A DNA stretch of 64,000 bases from Patescibacteria group bacterium. GTDB taxonomy: Bacteria > Patescibacteriota > Saccharimonadia > Saccharimonadales > UBA4665. Shown piece after piece: positions 1,924 to 63,443 of the stretch. Location: contig DATIIH010000013.1 in NCBI GenBank assembly GCA_035479875.1, positions 37,089 to 101,088 on the forward strand, given 5' to 3'. Position 1 is the first letter of the stretch; every line of letters starts with the position of its first letter. The position numbers and the translations under genes were made by a program. The notes beneath the pieces were generated by a model, which had not been told where the DNA came from, ran no database searches, and worked only from the letters and a program-made list of their open reading frames with translations.

Positions 1924-3216
1924 ATGCATATCTTTTTCTCTGGCATTGGCGGCGCTGGCATCGGACCTATGGCGCTCATTGCCCATCAAGCTGGCTACGA
2001 CGTTTCTGGATCCGACAAGCAAGAAGGCAGCTATCTGCGCTATCTTAAAGAGCATGGCGTTACCGACATTCATATTGGGCAGAGTTACGACCAAATTGCT
2101 GAGGCCCACGCCGTCGCCCCAATTGACTGGTTTGTGTACACTTCGGCCCTACCTATGGAACAGCCAGACGCCCCGGAGCTACGCTTTTGTGCCGACCACA
2201 ACATTAAGGCCACCAAACGCGACGAATTTTTAAGCCAATTTTTAGCCGACAATAAGCTCAAAATGATCGCCGTTGCCGGCACTCATGGCAAGACCACCAC
2301 CACGGCCATGGCTACCTGGACCGCCCAACAAATCGGCCTGCCAGAGAGTCATTTGGTGCCGGCCAAGCTCAGTTTTGCTGATATGGGCACCTTTACACCG
2401 GGCAGTGAATACTTCATCTACGAAGCCGACGAATTTGACCGTAACTTTTTGAGCTACCATCCATATGTCAGCCTGATTACCGGGATCGACTGGGACCATC
2501 CCGACATTTACCCAACGCGCGAAGAATACAACGAGGCCTTCCGCACCTTTCTCGGCCAAAGCGAGCGGACCATCCTATGGCAGGCCGACGTAGCGCGCCT
2601 AGGCATCACGCCCAACGACAGCCAACACATTATCGACGAGGATGACCCCGCAATTAATGAACAACTGCACTTGGCTGGTTTAGTGAACCGCCAAAATGCC
2701 TGGCAGGTTGCACATGCTCTGCACATGGTAACTGATAAGCCGCTCGACGAGCTTATTGGCCACCTCAACCAATTCCCGGGTGTGGCCCGCCGCTTCGAAA
2801 AGATCGCCGACAACATTTATACCGACTACGCTCATACACCGCCTAAGATCCGTGGCGCCTTACAGAACGCTGGTGAAGTCGCACCCGGTCGCGTCGTTGT
2901 GGTGTATGAGGGTCTGCACAACACCCGCCAGCACTTTATCAAAGACGAGCTCAAAACCCTGTTTGAGGGCGTTAAGCACCTGTACATCGTGCCTAGCTAT
3001 CTGGCGCGTGAAGACAAGAACTTGCCCCTGCTCTCACCCGCTGACCTCAAGAACTTGATGAATGAGACGGTGCGGGCGTATACCGACACAGCCGAGCTAA
3101 ACGACGCACTCAAAGACATGATTGCCACGCACGCTCAAGCAGGCGATCTCGTATTGTGCATCAGCGCTGGTGGCGGCGGCAGCTTAGACGAATGGCTGCG
3201 CAAGCAAACATTTTAA
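1924..3216 (+). CDS. murC: UDP-N-acetylmuramate--L-alanine ligase (Mur ligase)
   Basis: GIGGAG N-terminal motif, VSGSD, AGTHGKTTT P-loop, EADE, IDWDHPD, GVARRFE, DYAHTP. Confidence 0.88.
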   Translation: MHIFFSGIGGAGIGPMALIAHQAGYDVSGSDKQEGSYLRYLKEHGVTDIHIGQSYDQIAEAHAVAPIDWFVYTSALPMEQPDAPELRFCADHNIKATKRDEFLSQFLADNKLKMIAVAGTHGKTTTTAMATWTAQQIGLPESHLVPAKLSFADMGTFTPGSEYFIYEADEFDRNFLSYHPYVSLITGIDWDHPDIYPTREEYNEAFRTFLGQSERTILWQADVARLGITPNDSQHIIDEDDPAINEQLHLAGLVNRQNAWQVAHALHMVTDKPLDELIGHLNQFPGVARRFEKIADNIYTDYAHTPPKIRGALQNAGEVAPGRVVVVYEGLHNTRQHFIKDELKTLFEGVKHLYIVPSYLAREDKNLPLLSPADLKNLMNETVRAYTDTAELNDALKDMIATHAQAGDLVLCISAGGGGSLDEWLRKQTF

Positions 3217-11301: not shown

Positions 11302-11682
11302 CTACTGCTCCACCCGTTCCGCGAGCCATGCGGCGATGTCGGTCACCGTAAGATGATTGGTGGCAACCTGCACCGCAAGGTCTTCCAGCTCACCTTGCTT
11401 CGCCTTAAAAACGACTCCATTAATACTAAGAAAGGTCAGGCCGGCAAGCATTCCGGAACGCTTATTGCCATCAACAAAGGCGTGGTCTGCAATTATTCCA
11501 CGAATAAGTGCGGCCGCCTTCTCGCAGGGCGTCGCGTACAACTCCTCGCCAAATACCACTTGCGTTTGCGTGGCCAGCGCAGCCTCCAGCCGACCCAAAT
11601 CTCTCAGGCCGGCAGAACCGCCGGTTTCTTGGAGTACAAGAGCATGGATTTCGAGCAGTTGTTCTAGCGATAGATTAATCAT
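11302..11682 (-). CDS. doc: Death-on-curing (Fic/Doc) family toxin
   Basis: GLRDLGRLEAAL and Doc motif HAFVDGNKRSG; overlaps the upstream antitoxin by 4 nt. Confidence 0.88.
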   Translation of the reverse strand: MINLSLEQLLEIHALVLQETGGSAGLRDLGRLEAALATQTQVVFGEELYATPCEKAAALIRGIIADHAFVDGNKRSGMLAGLTFLSINGVVFKAKQGELEDLAVQVATNHLTVTDIAAWLAERVEQ

Positions 11683-11900
11683 CGATCGGCGAGATTTTTG
11701 AAGTCTTTTTTGTAATCGGTAAGAATCTTGCGGGCTGCGCGGATGACTTGTTCGTCGTTAGGCTGCGTCTTGCTAACGGGCCGCACGATAAATTCTACTT
11801 CGTCTCCGGTGCCCAAACCTTCGCGGCGTAAATCCTTAACGGGAAGTGTGAGACCTTCGCTCGAACCGATTCTGATAATTTTTTGGATACCTTGAATCAT
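11679..11900 (-). CDS. AbrB/MazE-like antitoxin
   Basis: IIRIGSSEGLTLP...GLGTGDEVEF swapped-hairpin signature; ATGA-type overlap with doc. Confidence 0.8.
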   Translation of the reverse strand: MIQGIQKIIRIGSSEGLTLPVKDLRREGLGTGDEVEFIVRPVSKTQPNDEQVIRAARKILTDYKKDFKNLADR

Positions 11901-11906
11901 ACGAAC

Positions 11907-11925
11907 ATTATAACGTTATTATAAT
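11907..11925. promoter_or_regulatory. TA promoter -10 with overlapping inverted repeat (putative autoregulatory operator)
   Basis: ATTATAA-cgtta-TTATAAT, containing the palindrome ATAACGTTAT. TATAAT on the minus strand lies 6 nt before the antitoxin ATG. Confidence 0.5.
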
Positions 11926-11932
11926 AGAATGT

Positions 11933-12535
11933 CTACTGCCGTTTGGCTTGTGCGGCCGCAACGTGGGAGCGACGGTAGATAATGATTGATACCATCAGCC
12001 AGTTGCCCGTCATTATATAGAGCGGGTAGAGCAACTGCGTGGCGTTAAGCGCGCCTACCGCCAGCGCGCCGAGGGTGCCGGAAACAGCAGATATTGCCCA
12101 CGTAGCAAGCGTCTCGGTTTGTGGCGCTTTCCAAGTTTTTTCAATCGTCAGCCAAAACCCAGTGAGATCGACGAGCACAACAACAATCAATGCCGCTAGC
12201 GGACTCTTGAGCAACCACCATAGCCCAACGCCAACGATCGCCACACCGACTGCCGCCATATCCTTACGATGAAACTTGCCGTAGCCGTGACGCAACGACA
12301 ATACTGCAACAGCAGCGGTAACTATCGTCTGCCCTGCCGTCAGCAACAGCGACCAGCGGGCATGCGCCCCTACCTGAGCCCCGAGTGACACGAGGTTAAG
12401 CAATAACCAAATCCACCAGGTAGCTCGCTCTGGCTTAGTCTTGCCACGAAAAATATCAACCAAGTACGGGACAATACTAATAAACTGGAGCATGCCAGCG
12501 AGTGCACCCAGCGTTGCAAGCAGCGTCGTATGCAT
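11933..12535 (-). CDS. Multi-pass membrane protein (PQ-loop-like repeat, CPR-type)
   Basis: About 7 TM helices and two internal repeats (KTKPERATW / KAPQTETLATW); abuts aspS. Confidence 0.7.
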   Translation of the reverse strand: MHTTLLATLGALAGMLQFISIVPYLVDIFRGKTKPERATWWIWLLLNLVSLGAQVGAHARWSLLLTAGQTIVTAAVAVLSLRHGYGKFHRKDMAAVGVAIVGVGLWWLLKSPLAALIVVVLVDLTGFWLTIEKTWKAPQTETLATWAISAVSGTLGALAVGALNATQLLYPLYIMTGNWLMVSIIIYRRSHVAAAQAKRQ

Positions 12536-17543: not shown

Positions 17544-19100
17544 CTACTTGCCTTTAGTAGTAAATTCGGTGGCGCCGCAGGTGCAGCCCTTGTTTAACTT
17601 TTTGGAGTTATAGACGTAATAGATGTTGCCCGTCTTGCCGCAGGAGGTGCATGAACGCTCGACGTCGTGCACCATATCATCACCTTCCTCAAATCCCAGC
17701 AGAACCTTCATGGCATCGGCCTCAGGGCCGACGGCCTCTACTAAGCCACAACTGCCGGCGCCGCAGAATACAACCGGCGGGGCGTCGGCTTCGATATCCC
17801 GTTCGATTGCGCGGATAGCATCTTCGGTGTGCTGCCCGCGGGTTTCGGCCAACTCACGCAGACGCTTGGCAGTCTGGACGTTAAACGCCACTTCGGCTTG
17901 ATCGGGATTGTGCTTGACCAGGCCAAACACAATCTTTTTAACCTGTCGCTCAACGAGACCCATAGCCGACCAGTGGTCAATACCGGACTGTTCGAGCGTC
18001 ATCAAGAAGTCGGCGAGATCTTCGCTGCTCGCGTCGAGCTTCTCTTGACGGGCAACGGCCTCGGCTTCGATAGCGGCGTAGTCCATGGGGTGGTCGTCGG
18101 CCACAATCTCGCCCATAAAGATGCGTTTGCCGGTGCGCTTGCTGGCGATCGCATCCAGCCTCTTGCCAACAGCCACGACACCCTCGCCGGTGACGTTAAT
18201 AACCTGCTTCTCGCGGACTTCGGCTTTGCTAAGCATTTCGCCCTGCTGGGCAACGCCCACCTCCCTAAGGAACTCAACAATATCGTCATGAGTAATGTTT
18301 TCGCCCGAGAGGCCAAGCTGTTCTTGGTAACGGGCATCTTTGCCATAACGCACACCGCGAATCATAAACTTGTCGTTCTCCGGCACATAGCCACCTAGGC
18401 CCAGCTCGGAGCCTCTGGCGTGCGCTGCTTTTGCCCAGTCAGCACATTCCGAAATGGTAGTGACGCGCGTATCGGGCAACGTCGAATTGGCTTCTGGCTG
18501 GCCAGGGCGGAGCACGGTCAAGTTGCCAACCGCCAAATGGCCTAATTTGCGAACGGCGATGTAGGTGGCCTCTTCTACGTACTCGCCTAAGCGGTAGCCC
18601 AGCTCTTCGTCCTCAGCTATCGGCGTAATGCCATCGCTTACCATGTCGATGAGGCAACGCCCTAAGAAGTGGTAGGCATTGGCAGCGGAGTCGAAGGTCT
18701 GTCTGGTCTCTGGGAAAAACTCCCACGTGCGTTTGCGCATTGCTTCGGCAAGCAGACGCTTGGTGTCTGTGGTCAGGCTCTGGCGGGCTTCGGCGGCCTG
18801 AGAGCTTTCTTTGCCGTGTGTTCGGCGCGCCTGGTTAGCGCGGGCCGCAGTAGTAAGTGGGTCAACTGCGTAAGGGACTTGCTGCTCGCTGTCGCCCTCG
18901 TTAAGTAAACGCCTGCGCCCGTCAAGGATAGCCCGGGCGCGGACACGGGCCGCTTCGCGTTCTTCACGTAAGCCGCGGATGCTGTCGGCGTCAACCCACC
19001 CCAAAAACTCCGGCCCGTTTTCAAAAACGGGGGCGGCGCTTGATGCAAATTCTGGCGCATGGGCTACGGCGGTTATAAAAATACCCTCTTTCCAGAGCAA
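17544..19100 (-). CDS. Soluble hypothetical protein with C-terminal Cys cluster; true start uncertain
   Basis: 518-codon ORF with no TM or signal peptide; CGAGSC, CTSC and CTC near the C-terminus. The TTG start lies inside the riboswitch terminator. Confidence 0.75.
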   Translation of the reverse strand: MLWKEGIFITAVAHAPEFASSAAPVFENGPEFLGWVDADSIRGLREEREAARVRARAILDGRRRLLNEGDSEQQVPYAVDPLTTAARANQARRTHGKESSQAAEARQSLTTDTKRLLAEAMRKRTWEFFPETRQTFDSAANAYHFLGRCLIDMVSDGITPIAEDEELGYRLGEYVEEATYIAVRKLGHLAVGNLTVLRPGQPEANSTLPDTRVTTISECADWAKAAHARGSELGLGGYVPENDKFMIRGVRYGKDARYQEQLGLSGENITHDDIVEFLREVGVAQQGEMLSKAEVREKQVINVTGEGVVAVGKRLDAIASKRTGKRIFMGEIVADDHPMDYAAIEAEAVARQEKLDASSEDLADFLMTLEQSGIDHWSAMGLVERQVKKIVFGLVKHNPDQAEVAFNVQTAKRLRELAETRGQHTEDAIRAIERDIEADAPPVVFCGAGSCGLVEAVGPEADAMKVLLGFEEGDDMVHDVERSCTSCGKTGNIYYVYNSKKLNKGCTCGATEFTTKGK

Positions 19101-19232
19101 GGTAGAGGGTGAGGTAGGCGCTTTCCTGCTCGGGAATGTCGTTACAAGCTGTATCGGACTCGACCCTATGGGGCATCACCGTTGCGGCACAGTACAGGAT
19201 TCTCACCTGCTTCCAGCAATATGTTGTTAAGT
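19074..19232 (-). ncRNA. Cobalamin riboswitch, short class-II-like (AdoCbl-variant-like), with terminator/antiterminator platform
   Basis: GCUG-GAAG-CAGG UGAGAAU CCUG-U-ACUGU GCCGCA ACGGU-GA-hairpin-GAGUCCGAUA-CAGC, an outer stem, a downstream UUCC-CGAGCA-GGAA hairpin, then ACCCUCU/AGAGGGU followed by AUUUUU. Confidence 0.82.
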
Positions 19233-19238
19233 ACATCT

Positions 19239-19247
19239 ATCATAGCA
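19239..19247 (-). promoter_or_regulatory. Extended -10 promoter for the riboswitch leader
   Basis: TGCTATGAT; predicted start site ~19232, at the 5' edge of the aptamer. Confidence 0.6.
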
Positions 19248-19295
19248 AACTAGACACTACATACGTGGTGTAGTTTTACCAACAAAGCACTACGA

Positions 19296-19757
19296 TTACT
19301 GCTCGGCGGCAGTCGTCTTTTGCTTGAGGGCGCTGAGGCGCGGAATAAAGCTCTGAGCGGCGCCATCGAGGCCTAGAACCTTAAGCGCACCTACCAATAC
19401 ATATAAATGGTCGAGATTATCGGTTGCCACTTGGCCGGCCTGCTCCAGCTCGGCAAACAAATACTCTACCTTTTCGACCAACCACTTTTCTTCAGACGGT
19501 TTTATTTGATTGGTGGGAATCTTGCTTGGTTCGCTAGGCTCGACAACTTCGAGCGAGCGCGCCGAGTGGTCGCGCTTGCGCAAATGCCCGCGCCGGATGA
19601 GATTATTAATATGCAACGCCACAGTCGCCACCGATGTGTAATTAAGCCCTGTCATTATTTCTCGGTAACTCGGGCTATACCCGTGCTCGGCAATAAACTG
19701 CTCGATAAAGGTTAGTAGCTCGCGTTGCTTTTTGGTTGGTCGTACGGTGTCGCTCAT
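19296..19757 (-). CDS. LexA-like repressor: N-terminal winged HTH only, no S24 peptidase domain
   Basis: TKKQRELLTFIEQFIAEHGYSPSYREI...SVATVALHINNLIRRGHLRKRDHSARSLEV. The C-terminus is helical, with no Ala-Gly site or Ser/Lys dyad. SD AAGGAGG. Confidence 0.82.
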   Translation of the reverse strand: MSDTVRPTKKQRELLTFIEQFIAEHGYSPSYREIMTGLNYTSVATVALHINNLIRRGHLRKRDHSARSLEVVEPSEPSKIPTNQIKPSEEKWLVEKVEYLFAELEQAGQVATDNLDHLYVLVGALKVLGLDGAAQSFIPRLSALKQKTTAAEQ

Positions 19758-19773
19758 GCCCCCTCCTTTGCAA

Positions 19774-19963
19774 AGACCCGCCGTGCGGGGTACTGTGCCC
19801 CGAGGCGATACCAAAAGTGATTACTCAAGGTAAACCAAGCCGCCGCAAGAGAGAATTTACGCTCCGTGCCCACGTCGCGAGCAAACAGAGCAATCCCACC
19901 CCAGTGATAGCAGGTTCCGCCAATCATACACTCATTTTGTTGGATAAGATCGGCGCGGGTCTC
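19774..19963 (-). ncRNA. Candidate ~190-nt rod-like structured RNA (6S-like or cis-regulatory leader)
   Basis: The ends pair (AGACCCGC/GCGGGUCU) and a nested series of helices with many G-U pairs forms on the minus strand only. Extended -10 TGGTATACT at 20006-19998. Confidence 0.45.
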
Positions 19964-61523: not shown

Positions 61524-63443
61524 CTACCTCGCAAGATTATTAGTGCTTCCCGGATACAATTGGTTTTTCAAATCAATAGTGCCTTGCGGCTGGTTAAACT
61601 CCCCGCCCTGCTCCATTTGTTGGACTTGGTTGGGGTTGGTAGTAATTAAGCTGGATTCGGTGGGACTAGCCACAACTTGAAGGTGGACGTGGTTTTGGCC
61701 AGCAAAGAATAGGCCTTGGCCTACCGGGAACTGACTCAGACGTTTCTTCTCCTCACTCGTGAGTTTAAAGACATCCGACAAAACATCGACCGCCGACGGC
61801 GACTGCTTGAGTAAGAATTGCATACTGGCGTTGGCCACGATTGCCCGCCCCATGCGTGAGCCCATAAAGTCTTCCACGTCTTGGGTGATCGTGGTGATGC
61901 CCAGGTTGTACTTACGGGCACGCTTGGCGAGGCTGAACATAAAGTTGGCTGAGTCCTCGTACTTCATAAGCTGCCAGGCTTCGTCGACGATTAGCATACG
62001 GCGCCTACGGTCGGATTTGGTCTTGTTCCAGATGTAGTTAAGGACGATGTACATGGCCACCGGGCGGAGTTCGTCCTCGAGGTCGCGGATGTTAAACACT
62101 ACGAGCGGGTTGTTAATGTCGACGTTACTCTGCTGCGAGAAGATGCCGGCAAACGTGCCTGTGGTGTACTTGCGCAGGCGCTGCGACAGCTGCGGGCCGG
62201 TGCCGCCCATGTGCAGTAACGTGTCATATAGGTCGGCGATTGTAGGTGGCAGCCCTTGGTGAGTAAGCGGGTCGTTGGTGATGCCGGCCTTAGCGTAAGT
62301 TTCGATTAAAGCTGCGTCGAGGTCAGATTCTTCCACTGGACTCAGCGCCGGAGCCATCACTGCCGTGCCACCCATCATCTGAGCCTGGGCGCCGCCCATC
62401 ATTAGGCGTAAGAGACCATGCAGCGTAATCAGGTTAGAACGTAGCGCATTGTCTGCTTCTTCGCTATCGACGACTTTTGGTAGGTCAAATGGGTTAATGC
62501 GCGTGGCCGAACTCAGGCTCAGGCGCACATATGCACCGCCGACAGCGTCGCACATCCGCTCGTATTCGTTTTCGGGGTCAATAATGAACACTTCGGTGCC
62601 CATCATCATCGATCGTAAAGCTTCGAGCTTAACAGTAAACGATTTACCGGCACCGGACTTAGCAAAGACTACTGAGTTGCCATTTTCCAGGCTGAAACGG
62701 TCAAAGATTACCAGGCCGGAGTTGTGCATGTTGATACCATACAAAATGCCATTTTCTTGCGTTAAGTCGGCGCTCGTGAACGGGAAGCTGGTGCTTATGT
62801 CGCCGGTGCTCATGTTGCGCCTAATTTGTAGTTGGTCGCTAAACTGCGGCACCGTGCTGTTTAAGCCTTGCTCTTGCTGCGAAGTAGCGGCCTTGCTGTA
62901 CACCAGCTGTTGGCCGAGCAATGACTCGACTTTGTGGCTTACAAACTCCATCTCTTCATCGCTGCCGGTGTAAATCGTAAAGTAAAAGCCAAAGCGGAAG
63001 AAGCGTTCTTCGCCCACCTGCAATTTGTCGCGCATTTCTTCGGCGTCCAAAATGGCGGCTTGCTTGCCCGGGTCGCGGACGCGGCCTTTTTCGGCATCGA
63101 TTTGGATGCCGGCCTCTAGCTGTGTCACTTTTTTGCGCAGGTTGTCGAGGACCACTTGGCTCTCTACCGGGTAAATAAACAGCGAGATATCAATAACTTC
63201 ATCGAGGTTAATCATGCTGCTGAGCCAGCCGGTGTACAGTTGGCGTGGGTAGCCGTAGACGTAGTACGTGCGCGCTTGGCGTGTGCCGAGGCGGAAGCGG
63301 TCGCTGGCGAACTCAATAGAGCTGGGCGCAATAAAGTCGCGCAGCGCCGTAATGCCCTTTTGGAACGCGGCGGCTACCTCTTGCTGTTCGCGCAACTGCT
63401 GTTGTTGAGCAAGCGCTACGGCGTCGAGTTTTTGCTTAGCCAT
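61524..63443 (-). CDS. virB4: VirB4/TraE-like type IV secretion ATPase
   Basis: Walker A AKSGAGKS, IDPENEY, INPFD, Walker B IVDEAW, RARKY, ITQD. Confidence 0.88.
   Translation of the reverse strand: MAKQKLDAVALAQQQQLREQQEVAAAFQKGITALRDFIAPSSIEFASDRFRLGTRQARTYYVYGYPRQLYTGWLSSMINLDEVIDISLFIYPVESQVVLDNLRKKVTQLEAGIQIDAEKGRVRDPGKQAAILDAEEMRDKLQVGEERFFRFGFYFTIYTGSDEEMEFVSHKVESLLGQQLVYSKAATSQQEQGLNSTVPQFSDQLQIRRNMSTGDISTSFPFTSADLTQENGILYGINMHNSGLVIFDRFSLENGNSVVFAKSGAGKSFTVKLEALRSMMMGTEVFIIDPENEYERMCDAVGGAYVRLSLSSATRINPFDLPKVVDSEEADNALRSNLITLHGLLRLMMGGAQAQMMGGTAVMAPALSPVEESDLDAALIETYAKAGITNDPLTHQGLPPTIADLYDTLLHMGGTGPQLSQRLRKYTTGTFAGIFSQQSNVDINNPLVVFNIRDLEDELRPVAMYIVLNYIWNKTKSDRRRRMLIVDEAWQLMKYEDSANFMFSLAKRARKYNLGITTITQDVEDFMGSRMGRAIVANASMQFLLKQSPSAVDVLSDVFKLTSEEKKRLSQFPVGQGLFFAGQNHVHLQVVASPTESSLITTNPNQVQQMEQGGEFNQPQGTIDLKNQLYPGSTNNLAR

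Follow-up and report, generated by a model that had tools for sequence, protein, structure and literature searches.

What is the structured leader in front of an unannotated gene in a Saccharimonadales genome, and to what does it respond? The DNA in question is a stretch of 64,000 nucleotides (nt) from a Patescibacteria group bacterium (assembly GCA_035479875.1, contig DATIIH010000013.1, positions 37,089 to 101,088), which is referred to at its full length as the window. A first-pass annotation, made from the letters alone, had read the minus strand from 19247 to 19074 as a complete cobalamin riboswitch in front of a gene of unknown function, and every string quoted from this segment is present there. 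The best explanation of the locus, held with strong confidence, is a class-II corrinoid riboswitch with which the mRNA of a conserved Saccharimonadales gene begins; the gene should be OFF in the ligand-bound state. It is a known kind of RNA in a new lineage, found here in a soil Saccharibacteria genome of the candidate phyla radiation (CPR), and it controls a gene of no known function.

An RNA conserved before one Saccharimonadales gene

When the whole 64-kb window was searched with Rfam at gathering thresholds, no match at all was found. A local scan of the leader gave a match to RF00174 (Cobalamin) at 19269..19130 (minus strand; 30.9 bits, E = 3.9e-6, gathering score 31.5), along with two lower-scoring matches to other families in its clan. 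In view of these 30.9 bits the blank result for the whole window is no proof of absence, and a gathering score is a curation cut-off, not a structural feature. By the threshold alone the first-pass identification was narrowly missed; the comparative evidence overrides this.

The downstream protein has 28 close homologues, all from Candidatus Saccharimonadales, and each one that is named by a source is called hypothetical. One genome per species was scanned for the homologue, which yielded 30 loci (L001 to L030), 27 of them with upstream DNA. By lineage all homologues and loci are Saccharimonadales, so that the CPR host proposed earlier is borne out. In 11 of the 30 loci a cobalamin-clan Rfam match directly precedes the homologue on its own strand; it reached the gathering score in eight (L006, L010, L011, L016, L022, L025, L026 and L030; RF00174 or RF01689) and fell below it in three. 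The compact relatives matched RF01689 at 36.6–45.1 bits. The octamer GCCGCAAC followed by CGAGCA precedes the gene in 25 of these 27, and the remaining two have GCCGCUAC.

Eighteen RNAs were aligned (alignment A2) and their RNAalifold consensus was used to build a covariance model, R1. In the window, R1 gave a single match at 19233..19119 (minus strand; 98.7 bits, E = 4.6e-20), which is mid-range for the family. Over the window and the 30 loci together (268 kb, both strands), 28 matches were obtained, one in the window and one before the gene in each of the 27 loci, and no match was found anywhere else in those 268 kb. The same RNA is conserved across Saccharimonadales directly upstream of the orthologous gene in every locus with upstream DNA.

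The helices are also supported by covariation. Among the 28 aligned sequences, 97.3% of cells held standard pairs and 13 of the 19 pairs showed compensatory changes; the covariation score was 0.524, compared with 0.162 ± 0.015 for shuffles (0 of 500 reached 0.524) and at most 0.09 for slid controls. An independent set was obtained by scanning metagenome contigs for the L5 core CTGTGCCGCAACKGT, which gave 47 further R1 matches. With 46 metagenome sequences, 93.8% of cells were paired, 14 of the 19 pairs were compensatory and the score was 0.532. The four-way junction of P3, P4, P5 and P6 is backed by covariation in both the genome and the metagenome sets. The segment 19233..19119 (minus strand) is confirmed as the aptamer and P13 of a class-II cobalamin riboswitch, and the RNA is real. 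As an RNA it represents a new subgroup inside a known class, with known switching logic. Automatic annotation based on Rfam will flag some of the orthologous RNAs and would miss the one in the window; part of this riboswitch subgroup escapes the standard Rfam threshold.

The elements of the promoter, aptamer and P13, all on the minus strand, are as follows, in the direction of transcription.

19239..19247, minus: extended -10 element TGCTATGAT, ending 8 nt before the UUAA of P1
19224..19230, minus: P1 5' strand UUAACAA; U7, U8, A9, A10 and A12 invariant in alignment A2
19218..19223, minus: J1/3 CAUAUU, single-stranded, with no helix predicted; the RF01689 J1/3 aligns to the equivalent A-rich stretch
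19214..19217, minus: P3 5' strand GCUG, pairing with CAGC at 19148..19151; three of four pairs compensatory
19194..19210, minus: P4 hairpin GCAGG-UGAGAAU-CCUGU; four of five pairs compensatory; L4 is the conserved T-loop
19183..19191, minus: P5/L5 UGU-GCC-GCA, P5 of 3 base pairs (bp); L5 UGCCG is the putative partner of L13
19179..19181, minus: P6 5' strand CGG, pairing with CCG at 19155..19157
19162..19174, minus: hairpin GCCCC-AUA-GGGUC inserted in L6, 13 nt, variable among relatives
19152..19161, minus: B12-box region GAGUCCGAUA, holding the P6 3' strand CCG (19155..19157) and J6/3 AUA; aligns to the RF00174 B12 box
19148..19151, minus: P3 3' strand CAGC, helix 1 of the covariation analysis
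19142..19147, minus: P1 3' strand UUGUAA, complementary to UUAACAA with one bulged A, read from the sequence
19123..19136, minus: P13 hairpin UUCC-CGAGCA-GGAA, after CGACA; four of four stem pairs covary

The conserved core of the class is present in alignment with RF00174 and RF01689: the GGAA junction, the L4 T-loop GUGaaAuUCC and a B12 box whose back-pairing forms P6. The P3-P4 junction of the window reads GAA, and its L4 loop fits the GUGaAAuUCC consensus of both Rfam families. The next segment reads AC-UGUGCCGCA, in which P5 is UGU/GCA; its U-A pair is replaced by A-U in L013 and L018. P6 varies among CGG/CCG, CUG/CAG and CAG/CUG. Its middle pair is G-C in 18, U-A in eight and A-U in one of the genome sequences, and U-A in 23 and G-C in 19 of the metagenome sequences. 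L6 with its insert reads UGAU-GCCCCAUAGGGUC, and the B12 box reads GAGU-CCG-AUA, of which A-G-x-C-x-G is invariant in A2. The J4/5 base A19193 and U19158, which lies just 5' of the P6 3' strand, covary. The pairs A-U, G-C, G-U and A-C occur 18, 7, 2 and 1 times in the genome set (Fisher p 2e-4) and 19, 18, 5 and 1 times in the metagenome set (Fisher p 1e-6), both values uncorrected for phylogeny. This suggests a tertiary or junction base pair outside the 19-pair consensus structure stored in the model.

The first-pass anatomy was sound for P3, the P4 T-loop and P13, all of which covary. A 5-bp P5 (ACUGU/ACGGU) was rejected by covariation, since the CGG of its 3' strand pairs with the B12-box CCG as P6, and this CGG/CCG helix is the P6 of the Rfam models. 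The hairpin that had been named a short P6 exists as the insert in L6. P1 is present and weak; the motif (A)CUUAACAA at its 5' strand is conserved as sequence, and RF01689 aligns CUUAAC as the P1 5' strand.

Class II is defined by the lack of P2 and of the P7-P11 extension (PMC7367189). In all 28 sequences J1/3 is 4–9 nt long, A-rich and unpaired, and no P2 stem-loop lies between P1 and P3. Most members carry a hairpin insert of 0–13 nt in L6 and no P7-P11 extension. In L006, L022 and L026 the L6 hairpin is absent and L6 is UUAAAGU, as in the RF01689 consensus (UaAaAGU). L017, L021 and L027 have large, non-conserved L6 inserts of 100–230 nt around an intact core. As read from the sequence, the architecture is class II by these definitions (PMC7367189), in agreement with the compact class-II layout first proposed, which has no P2 and only a short P6 insert. 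Selectivity for adenosylcobalamin over methyl- or hydroxocobalamin in class II is set by a variable J1/3-J6/3 contact that is not readable from sequence (PMC6158498). As a separate observation, L002 to L004 and L018 have lineage-specific insertions of about 25 nt in the P4 loop region, with the aptamer core intact.

Kissing loops with a bulge have precedents in env8 and A. halodurans cobT. A loop of this kind had also been predicted for the window, and the complementarity is there: L5 UGCCG and L13 CGAGCA could form 5 bp with A19130 bulged, and both loops are co-conserved. Of the 27 relatives at genome loci, 26 have CGAGCA as L13 (L003 has CGAAGCA), as do 30 of the 47 metagenome matches. The published L5 consensus is UCCCG (PMC10327014); L5 here has a C-to-G change at position 2, which is matched by a C in L13.

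The closest characterized relatives are the class-IIa riboswitches of RF01689 (AdoCbl-II), such as env8HyCbl (PDB 4FRN/4FRG). They share with the present RNAs the P3-P6 four-way junction, the L4 T-loop, the absence of P2, the single-stranded J1/3, a 3-bp P6 and, in the compact relatives, the loop UaAaAGU. A bulge-containing L5-L13 kissing loop and translational repression are established for class IIa (PMC7367189; PMC10327014) and would apply here by inference. The present RNAs differ in L5 (UGCCG instead of UCCCG) with the matching change in L13, and in a J6/3 that is one nucleotide shorter. Most members, the window included, also carry the hairpin in L6, because of which RF00174 outscores RF01689 for most of them. 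In most members, moreover, P13 does not contain the ribosome-binding site (RBS) itself and would work through a second hairpin.

In each of four soil metagenomes, 4–13 further contigs matched only the 40–45-nt aptamer core (19174..19218), with two to four differences. Related riboswitches appear to be common in that soil, because these further contigs match the core.

Promoter, expression platform and switching

A strict TGnTAnnnT element lies 6–18 nt, mostly 8 nt, upstream of the P1 UUAA in the window and in 18 of the 27 orthologous loci, and most remaining loci have near-variants; the same motif occurs in 2.4% of random 30-nt windows. A strict sigma-70 scan of the window found no full promoter at the leader because there is no canonical -35 element. 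From the position of the extended -10 element, the transcript should start at or just before ACUUAACAA, which would make the aptamer the 5' end of the mRNA.

An inverted repeat, CTACA-N7-TGTAG (19257..19273), preceded by an A-rich stretch, begins about 38 nt upstream of the first base of the riboswitch segment (about 40 nt before P1). Most of the loci L001 to L030 keep CTA(C)...(G)TAG, with a spacing of 2–9 nt. The repeat occurs once in the window, where 0.34 occurrences are expected, and AAWACTAYA, its conserved 5' part, is found at four sites in the 64 kb. As a general promoter motif it was rejected, being too rare in the window; it may serve as an operator or as a promoter element.

The elements downstream of P13 are given below.

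19083..19110, minus: sequestor/terminator hairpin ACCCUCU-(14-nt loop)-AGAGGGU, a 7-bp G+C-rich stem followed by UAUUUUUAU
19090..19102, minus: switching sequence CCUUGCUCUGGAA, complementary to P13/L13 UUCCCGAGCAGG; putative anti-sequestor/antiterminator
19084..19088, minus: Shine-Dalgarno sequence GAGGG; in most relatives GAGG(G) precedes the homologue's ATG, TTG or GTG by about 8 nt
19074..19076, minus: ATA at the position of the relatives' start codon, in frame with the open reading frame
19002..19004, minus: in-frame TTG, a possible alternative start, 72 nt beyond the ATA and with GGAG 3 nt before it
17544..19076, minus: regulated gene, encoding a conserved Saccharimonadales protein of about 510 residues with CGAGSCG and a C-terminal CxxC...CxC zinc ribbon

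P13 is followed by a 12-nt linker, the second hairpin ACCCUCU-ACCUUGCUCUGGAA-AGAGGGU and AUUUUU-AUA, which ends at 19074. The hairpin has a minimum free energy (MFE) of -12.1 kcal/mol, with the Shine-Dalgarno sequence paired. It had been annotated as an intrinsic terminator, and both stem and U-tract are present; its 3' arm is the Shine-Dalgarno sequence, because in most relatives an in-frame start lies about 8 nt after GAGG(G). The N-termini that follow from this placement in relatives agree with database proteins, for example in L006, where TTG opens MNETTELTHLPL, the N-terminus of P0017. The conserved device is therefore sequestration of the ribosome site. Among the 24 loci with a leader-type P13, the MFE hairpin after P13 pairs at least part of the Shine-Dalgarno sequence in 23 and all three AGG positions in 19, at -11 to -27 kcal/mol. 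Translational sequestration is the conserved element, and termination is probably a second layer.

Two mutually exclusive pairings are found in the leader: either P13 forms alongside the downstream hairpin, or it pairs with the 5' part of this hairpin. The duplex of P13 with the switching sequence has an energy of -16.5 kcal/mol in the window (z = -4.25 against shuffles). Over the 24 loci the mean z is -2.0, and 14 lie below -1.64; the antiterminator first proposed for P13 and CCUUGCUCUGGAA thus finds comparative support. Depending on the locus, the P13 segment is complementary to the 5' arm or to the loop of the downstream hairpin, and the P13 closing pairs change with the partner, as in GAGCAGA with UCUGCUC and GAGCAAG with CUUGCUC. 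In the window, P13 alone is worth -2.5 kcal/mol and P13 plus sequestor -11.8 kcal/mol when idealised, or -15.5 to -16.4 kcal/mol with extra pairs. The 11-bp alternative helix, which would represent the ON state, is worth -13.2 kcal/mol. A kinetic choice between the two is plausible, because 19102..19090 is transcribed before the 3' arm at 19089..19083.

A mechanism can be proposed from these pairings. With corrinoid bound, the P3-P6 four-way junction would fold and L5 UGCCG would kiss L13 CG-A-GCA, locking the weak P13 hairpin. The anti-Shine-Dalgarno arm ACCCUCU would then be free to pair with AGAGGGU, which would hide GAGGG and, with the U-tract, probably also end transcription, so that the gene would be OFF. 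Without ligand, P13/L13 UUCCCGAGCAGG would pair with CCUUGCUCUGGAA in the hairpin loop; because CCUUGCUCUGGAA is transcribed before the 3' arm of the hairpin, the sequestor could not close and the gene would be ON.

This scheme has parallels. In Priestia megaterium metE the kissing loop stabilises P13, and the antiterminator logic of P13 was shown by mutagenesis (PMC10327014). There, too, absence of ligand lets the 3' strand of P13 pair with the 5' portion of a downstream hairpin, for which a conserved complementarity exists here, and the OFF response to ligand first proposed for the window would follow the same logic. The metE aptamer is a different cobalamin riboswitch from a different phylum, a transcriptional switch before a known B12-independent isozyme. 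The present RNAs differ in that the Shine-Dalgarno sequence itself makes up the 3' arm of the hairpin; the window, moreover, has its competing sequence in the loop of the hairpin and not in an arm. In Escherichia coli btuB the L5-L13 kissing loop promotes an RBS-sequestering hairpin (PMC10327014), as proposed here; the btuB riboswitch differs in having a class-I aptamer with P2 and a large P6 extension, and it controls a known outer-membrane B12 transporter.

Control could be purely translational, the U-tract being merely an A/U-rich spacer between the Shine-Dalgarno sequence and the start codon, with no terminator at all. This is a serious possibility, if on balance a doubtful one. The 3' arm as Shine-Dalgarno sequence with a start codon 8 nt later in most relatives would suffice for it, five of the 24 loci (L009, L016, L017, L018 and L030) have no U-run after the hairpin, and a terminator scan of the window did not call the hairpin at 19083..19110. 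The scan missed it because the 14-nt loop exceeds 8 nt. A run of at least four U follows the hairpin in most loci, and in the window the 7-bp G+C-rich stem is followed directly by UAUUUUUAU; given the ATA start in this genome, a transcriptional layer would also keep the switch useful. Dual-acting riboswitches are established.

In the variant layout of L019, L020, L024 and L025 (about 2740..2990), P1 and P13 are separated by a Shine-Dalgarno sequence and AUG, and codons 2–7 (M-x-A-E-Q-L) make up P13. Many other members keep GCC-GAR codons at the same place besides a leader P13, which suggests that one of the two hairpins, leader or coding, is derived from the other.

Integrity of the switch and the start of the gene

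Several observations weigh against a working corrinoid riboswitch in the window. Its RNA is 0.6 bit short of the curated RF00174 gathering score. The MFE of the whole leader is no more stable than that of shuffles (z = +0.20) and the aptamer is not recovered in it; single-sequence folding of the leader is uninformative here. P1 is weak, with a duplex energy of -1.6 kcal/mol in the window and near 0 in most loci. It beats shuffles in only three of 28 sequences (mean z -0.37), and P1 as a solid helix is not supported by these energies. L5 and L13 are almost invariant within the family, which places the kissing loop beyond a covariation test inside it. Apart from the riboswitch, nothing demonstrably links the regulated protein to B12. 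A search for RNA-seq runs that contain the locus found none. Finally, the window has ATA where its relatives have ATG, TTG or GTG.

The start contexts are otherwise nearly identical (ggaaagagggtatttttATA in the window, ggaaacgagggtatttttATG in L010). The segment 18950..19330 is identical, with 0 differences, in contigs of four independent soil-metagenome runs, because of which the ATA is not an assembly slip. AUA is an allowed and weak bacterial start. Either it is used as such, or translation begins at the TTG at 19004, just after which the conserved protein core (W-x-DAD) begins. With ATA, termination may outweigh sequestration of the Shine-Dalgarno sequence here, or TTG 19004 may be the start of the gene; with that start, control would effectively rest with the U-tract terminator.

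The ATA could also mark a switch and gene in decay, a relic in this genome without regulatory function. The RF00174 score below 31.5 would fit such a relic, as would the presence of ATA at the conserved start position in four independent assemblies. This is nevertheless very unlikely, because the protein keeps all family-invariant residues: the frame is open over 510 codons and its product is 55–57% identical to the nearest relative. The aptamer helices, P13 and the competing pairings are likewise intact, with an R1 score in the middle of the family range, and the in-frame TTG with GGAG offers a second start.

Between the ATA and this TTG there is a second perfect hairpin, CCCGUUUU-UG-AAAACGGG, at 19014..19031 (minus strand). 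It is followed by GGAGUUUUU, that is, by GGAG and a U-run.

The regulated protein and the genes behind related RNAs

The open reading frame spans 17544..19100 (minus strand). Its protein family comprises 246 clusters at 50% identity in 1.84 billion representatives, 132 of them with E <= 1e-30. Full-length members have about 450–600 residues and a single architecture. Invariant residues include C219 (SEC-x-DW), K244, R257, C446-GAGS-C451 and the ribbon C484-x2-C487...C506-x-C508. An AlphaFold2 model of the protein has a mean pLDDT of 84.2 and a pTM of 0.80, with residues 1–31 and the CGAGSC loop disordered. The first-pass statement that the gene has no known function is upheld by every search made. 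Pfam and NCBIfam scans gave no match, and a sequence-profile search of the PDB gave only weak zinc-ribbon matches (E >= 0.06). With Foldseek, the best E values for the model were 0.08 against the PDB and 0.13 against BFVD, with TM scores of at most 0.11. No function for the family is described in the literature searched.

The neighbourhood offers conserved synteny only. The gene is monocistronic in the window. A gene for a LexA DNA-binding domain lies upstream in 23 of the 30 loci and a DsbA-like gene downstream in 16, and the 10-kb neighbourhoods also include envelope glycosyltransferases and aspartyl-tRNA synthetase. No B12 genes were found within 10 kb of the gene across these neighbourhoods, nor was a B12 enzyme found among the 15 window open reading frames, including the 10 largest, that were scanned against Pfam.

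The metagenome RNAs with the same L5 core bear on the ligand. The named genes behind the 47 R1-matching metagenome RNAs include those for a PduO-type cobalamin adenosyltransferase, the ribonucleotide reductase (RNR) NrdD, CbiX, a CobG-like protein, a Peripla_BP_2 (BtuF-like) protein, DUF4430 (a cluster of five) and the ECF-S-like membrane protein DUF6580. Unannotated zinc-ribbon proteins were found as well. Because these RNAs precede B12-related genes, a corrinoid is supported as the ligand, to which the family membership of the RNA also points.

Some of these genes lie in B12 islands on metagenome contigs. In L072 (5458..10495) the order is class II RNR, riboswitch, pduO, riboswitch and a protein of the type found in L062. 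L108 (529..5088) has class II RNR, riboswitch, pduO, DUF4430, DUF6580, riboswitch and an L062-type protein, and L097 (265..2125), a short contig with no RNR gene on it, has riboswitch, DUF6580, pduO, riboswitch and an L062-type protein.

A fold of this kind could in principle have drifted to another ligand, as the variants of the ykkC and guanine riboswitches have done. The L5 of the present family departs from the UCCCG consensus (PMC10327014), its J6/3 AUA is one nucleotide shorter than the RF01689 consensus AGcG, and many of the controlled genes have no known link to B12. Yet the L5 change is matched by the complementary change in L13, the core residues of the B12 box and T-loop are kept, and RNAs with the same L5 core stand before pduO, nrdD, cbiX, DUF4430 and a BtuF-like gene, in some loci within islands adjoining class II RNR. 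A variant class with a different ligand is accordingly considered highly improbable, and a corrinoid remains the ligand proposed here.

The largest downstream group, about 19 of the 47, consists of proteins of 300–550 residues without a Pfam match. They end in a small-G-x-C-(G/P) motif, a linker of 30–50 residues and a CxxC...CxxC ribbon. Of these loci, L107 encodes a true member of the window's family, and L050 (E = 4e-8) and, weakly, L098 encode distant members. The hidden Markov model of the window's family detects only these three. Homology to the L062 family is undemonstrated, since hhalign gave 45% probability over the ribbon alone with seven sequences and 13.5% with 27 sequences, and a single superfamily of riboswitch-linked zinc-ribbon proteins was rejected. 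At least nine groups without a Pfam match that cannot be aligned with one another occur behind such RNAs (L040, L051, L053, L055, L060, L067, L081, L088 and the L062 cluster). The shared GxC(G/P)-linker-ribbon ending reflects either convergence or very fast divergence. The C-terminus of the class II RNR in the islands, PSCGAGSFAYEEGCKKCYACGYSEC, resembles the CGAGSCG-plus-ribbon tail of the window's protein, a likeness that may serve as a lead only.

CPR bacteria, Saccharibacteria among them, have very small genomes, produce few cofactors and live on bacterial hosts. The conservation of a B12 switch across an order of such organisms implies that their cells import and sense corrinoids and tune at least one gene accordingly. 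To our knowledge, the genes behind cobalamin riboswitches are almost always transporters, enzymes of biosynthesis or salvage, or B12-independent substitutes, so an unannotated family behind one is a direct lead to a missing piece of B12 biology. The RNA matters mainly for its conserved place before a protein family that no database names.

Two roles are the most likely for the protein: to replace a B12-dependent step without need of B12, or to handle corrinoids. That it and the other GxC(G/P)-ribbon proteins represent a new B12-related function in small-genome bacteria is put forward tentatively. One candidate function is a B12-independent stand-in, recycled by thiols, for a step that depends on B12, ribonucleotide reduction for instance; another is a cytosolic enzyme that prepares scavenged corrinoids for adenosylation. 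The first would share the gene logic of the B12-independent isozymes metE, nrdDG and nrdAB, in which a single gene is repressed when B12 is available, and nrdD itself stands behind an R1-matching RNA in the metagenome locus L080. Unlike those systems, the window's protein showed no similarity to any RNR, MetE or other known isozyme in the Pfam, NCBIfam, PDB-profile and Foldseek searches.

In the literature searched, no natural B12 riboswitch was described in Saccharibacteria or Patescibacteria, cobalamin riboswitches were not linked with zinc-ribbon proteins, and DUF6580 was not mentioned. The suggestion of an undescribed B12-responsive system needs to be divided: the RNA mechanism is already known, and the regulated protein remains the lead. 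Inducible expression tools are being sought for the phylum (PMC11665869), and the switch is a compact natural regulatory part from it.

Some observations concern the surroundings of the gene. The upstream LexA DNA-binding-domain gene (19296..19814, minus strand) lies on the same strand and encodes 172 residues with no peptidase domain; at 55–78% identity across Saccharimonadales it is better conserved than the riboswitch-controlled gene. In L033 a CTP_transf_like gene (11464..12051; NadD/CoaD-type nucleotidyltransferase) overlaps the stop codon of the regulated gene by 4 nt and is probably co-transcribed with it. The 64-kb window contains no tRNA gene, and those of its scanned open reading frames that matched Pfam encode mostly cell-envelope glycosyltransferases or surface proteins, together with a TraG-like ATPase (61524..63443). 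In L027, from a Saccharimonadales metagenome-assembled genome, 6415..6469 (plus strand) matches the type III hammerhead ribozyme at 45.7 bits (gathering score 48.5; E = 7.7e-7).

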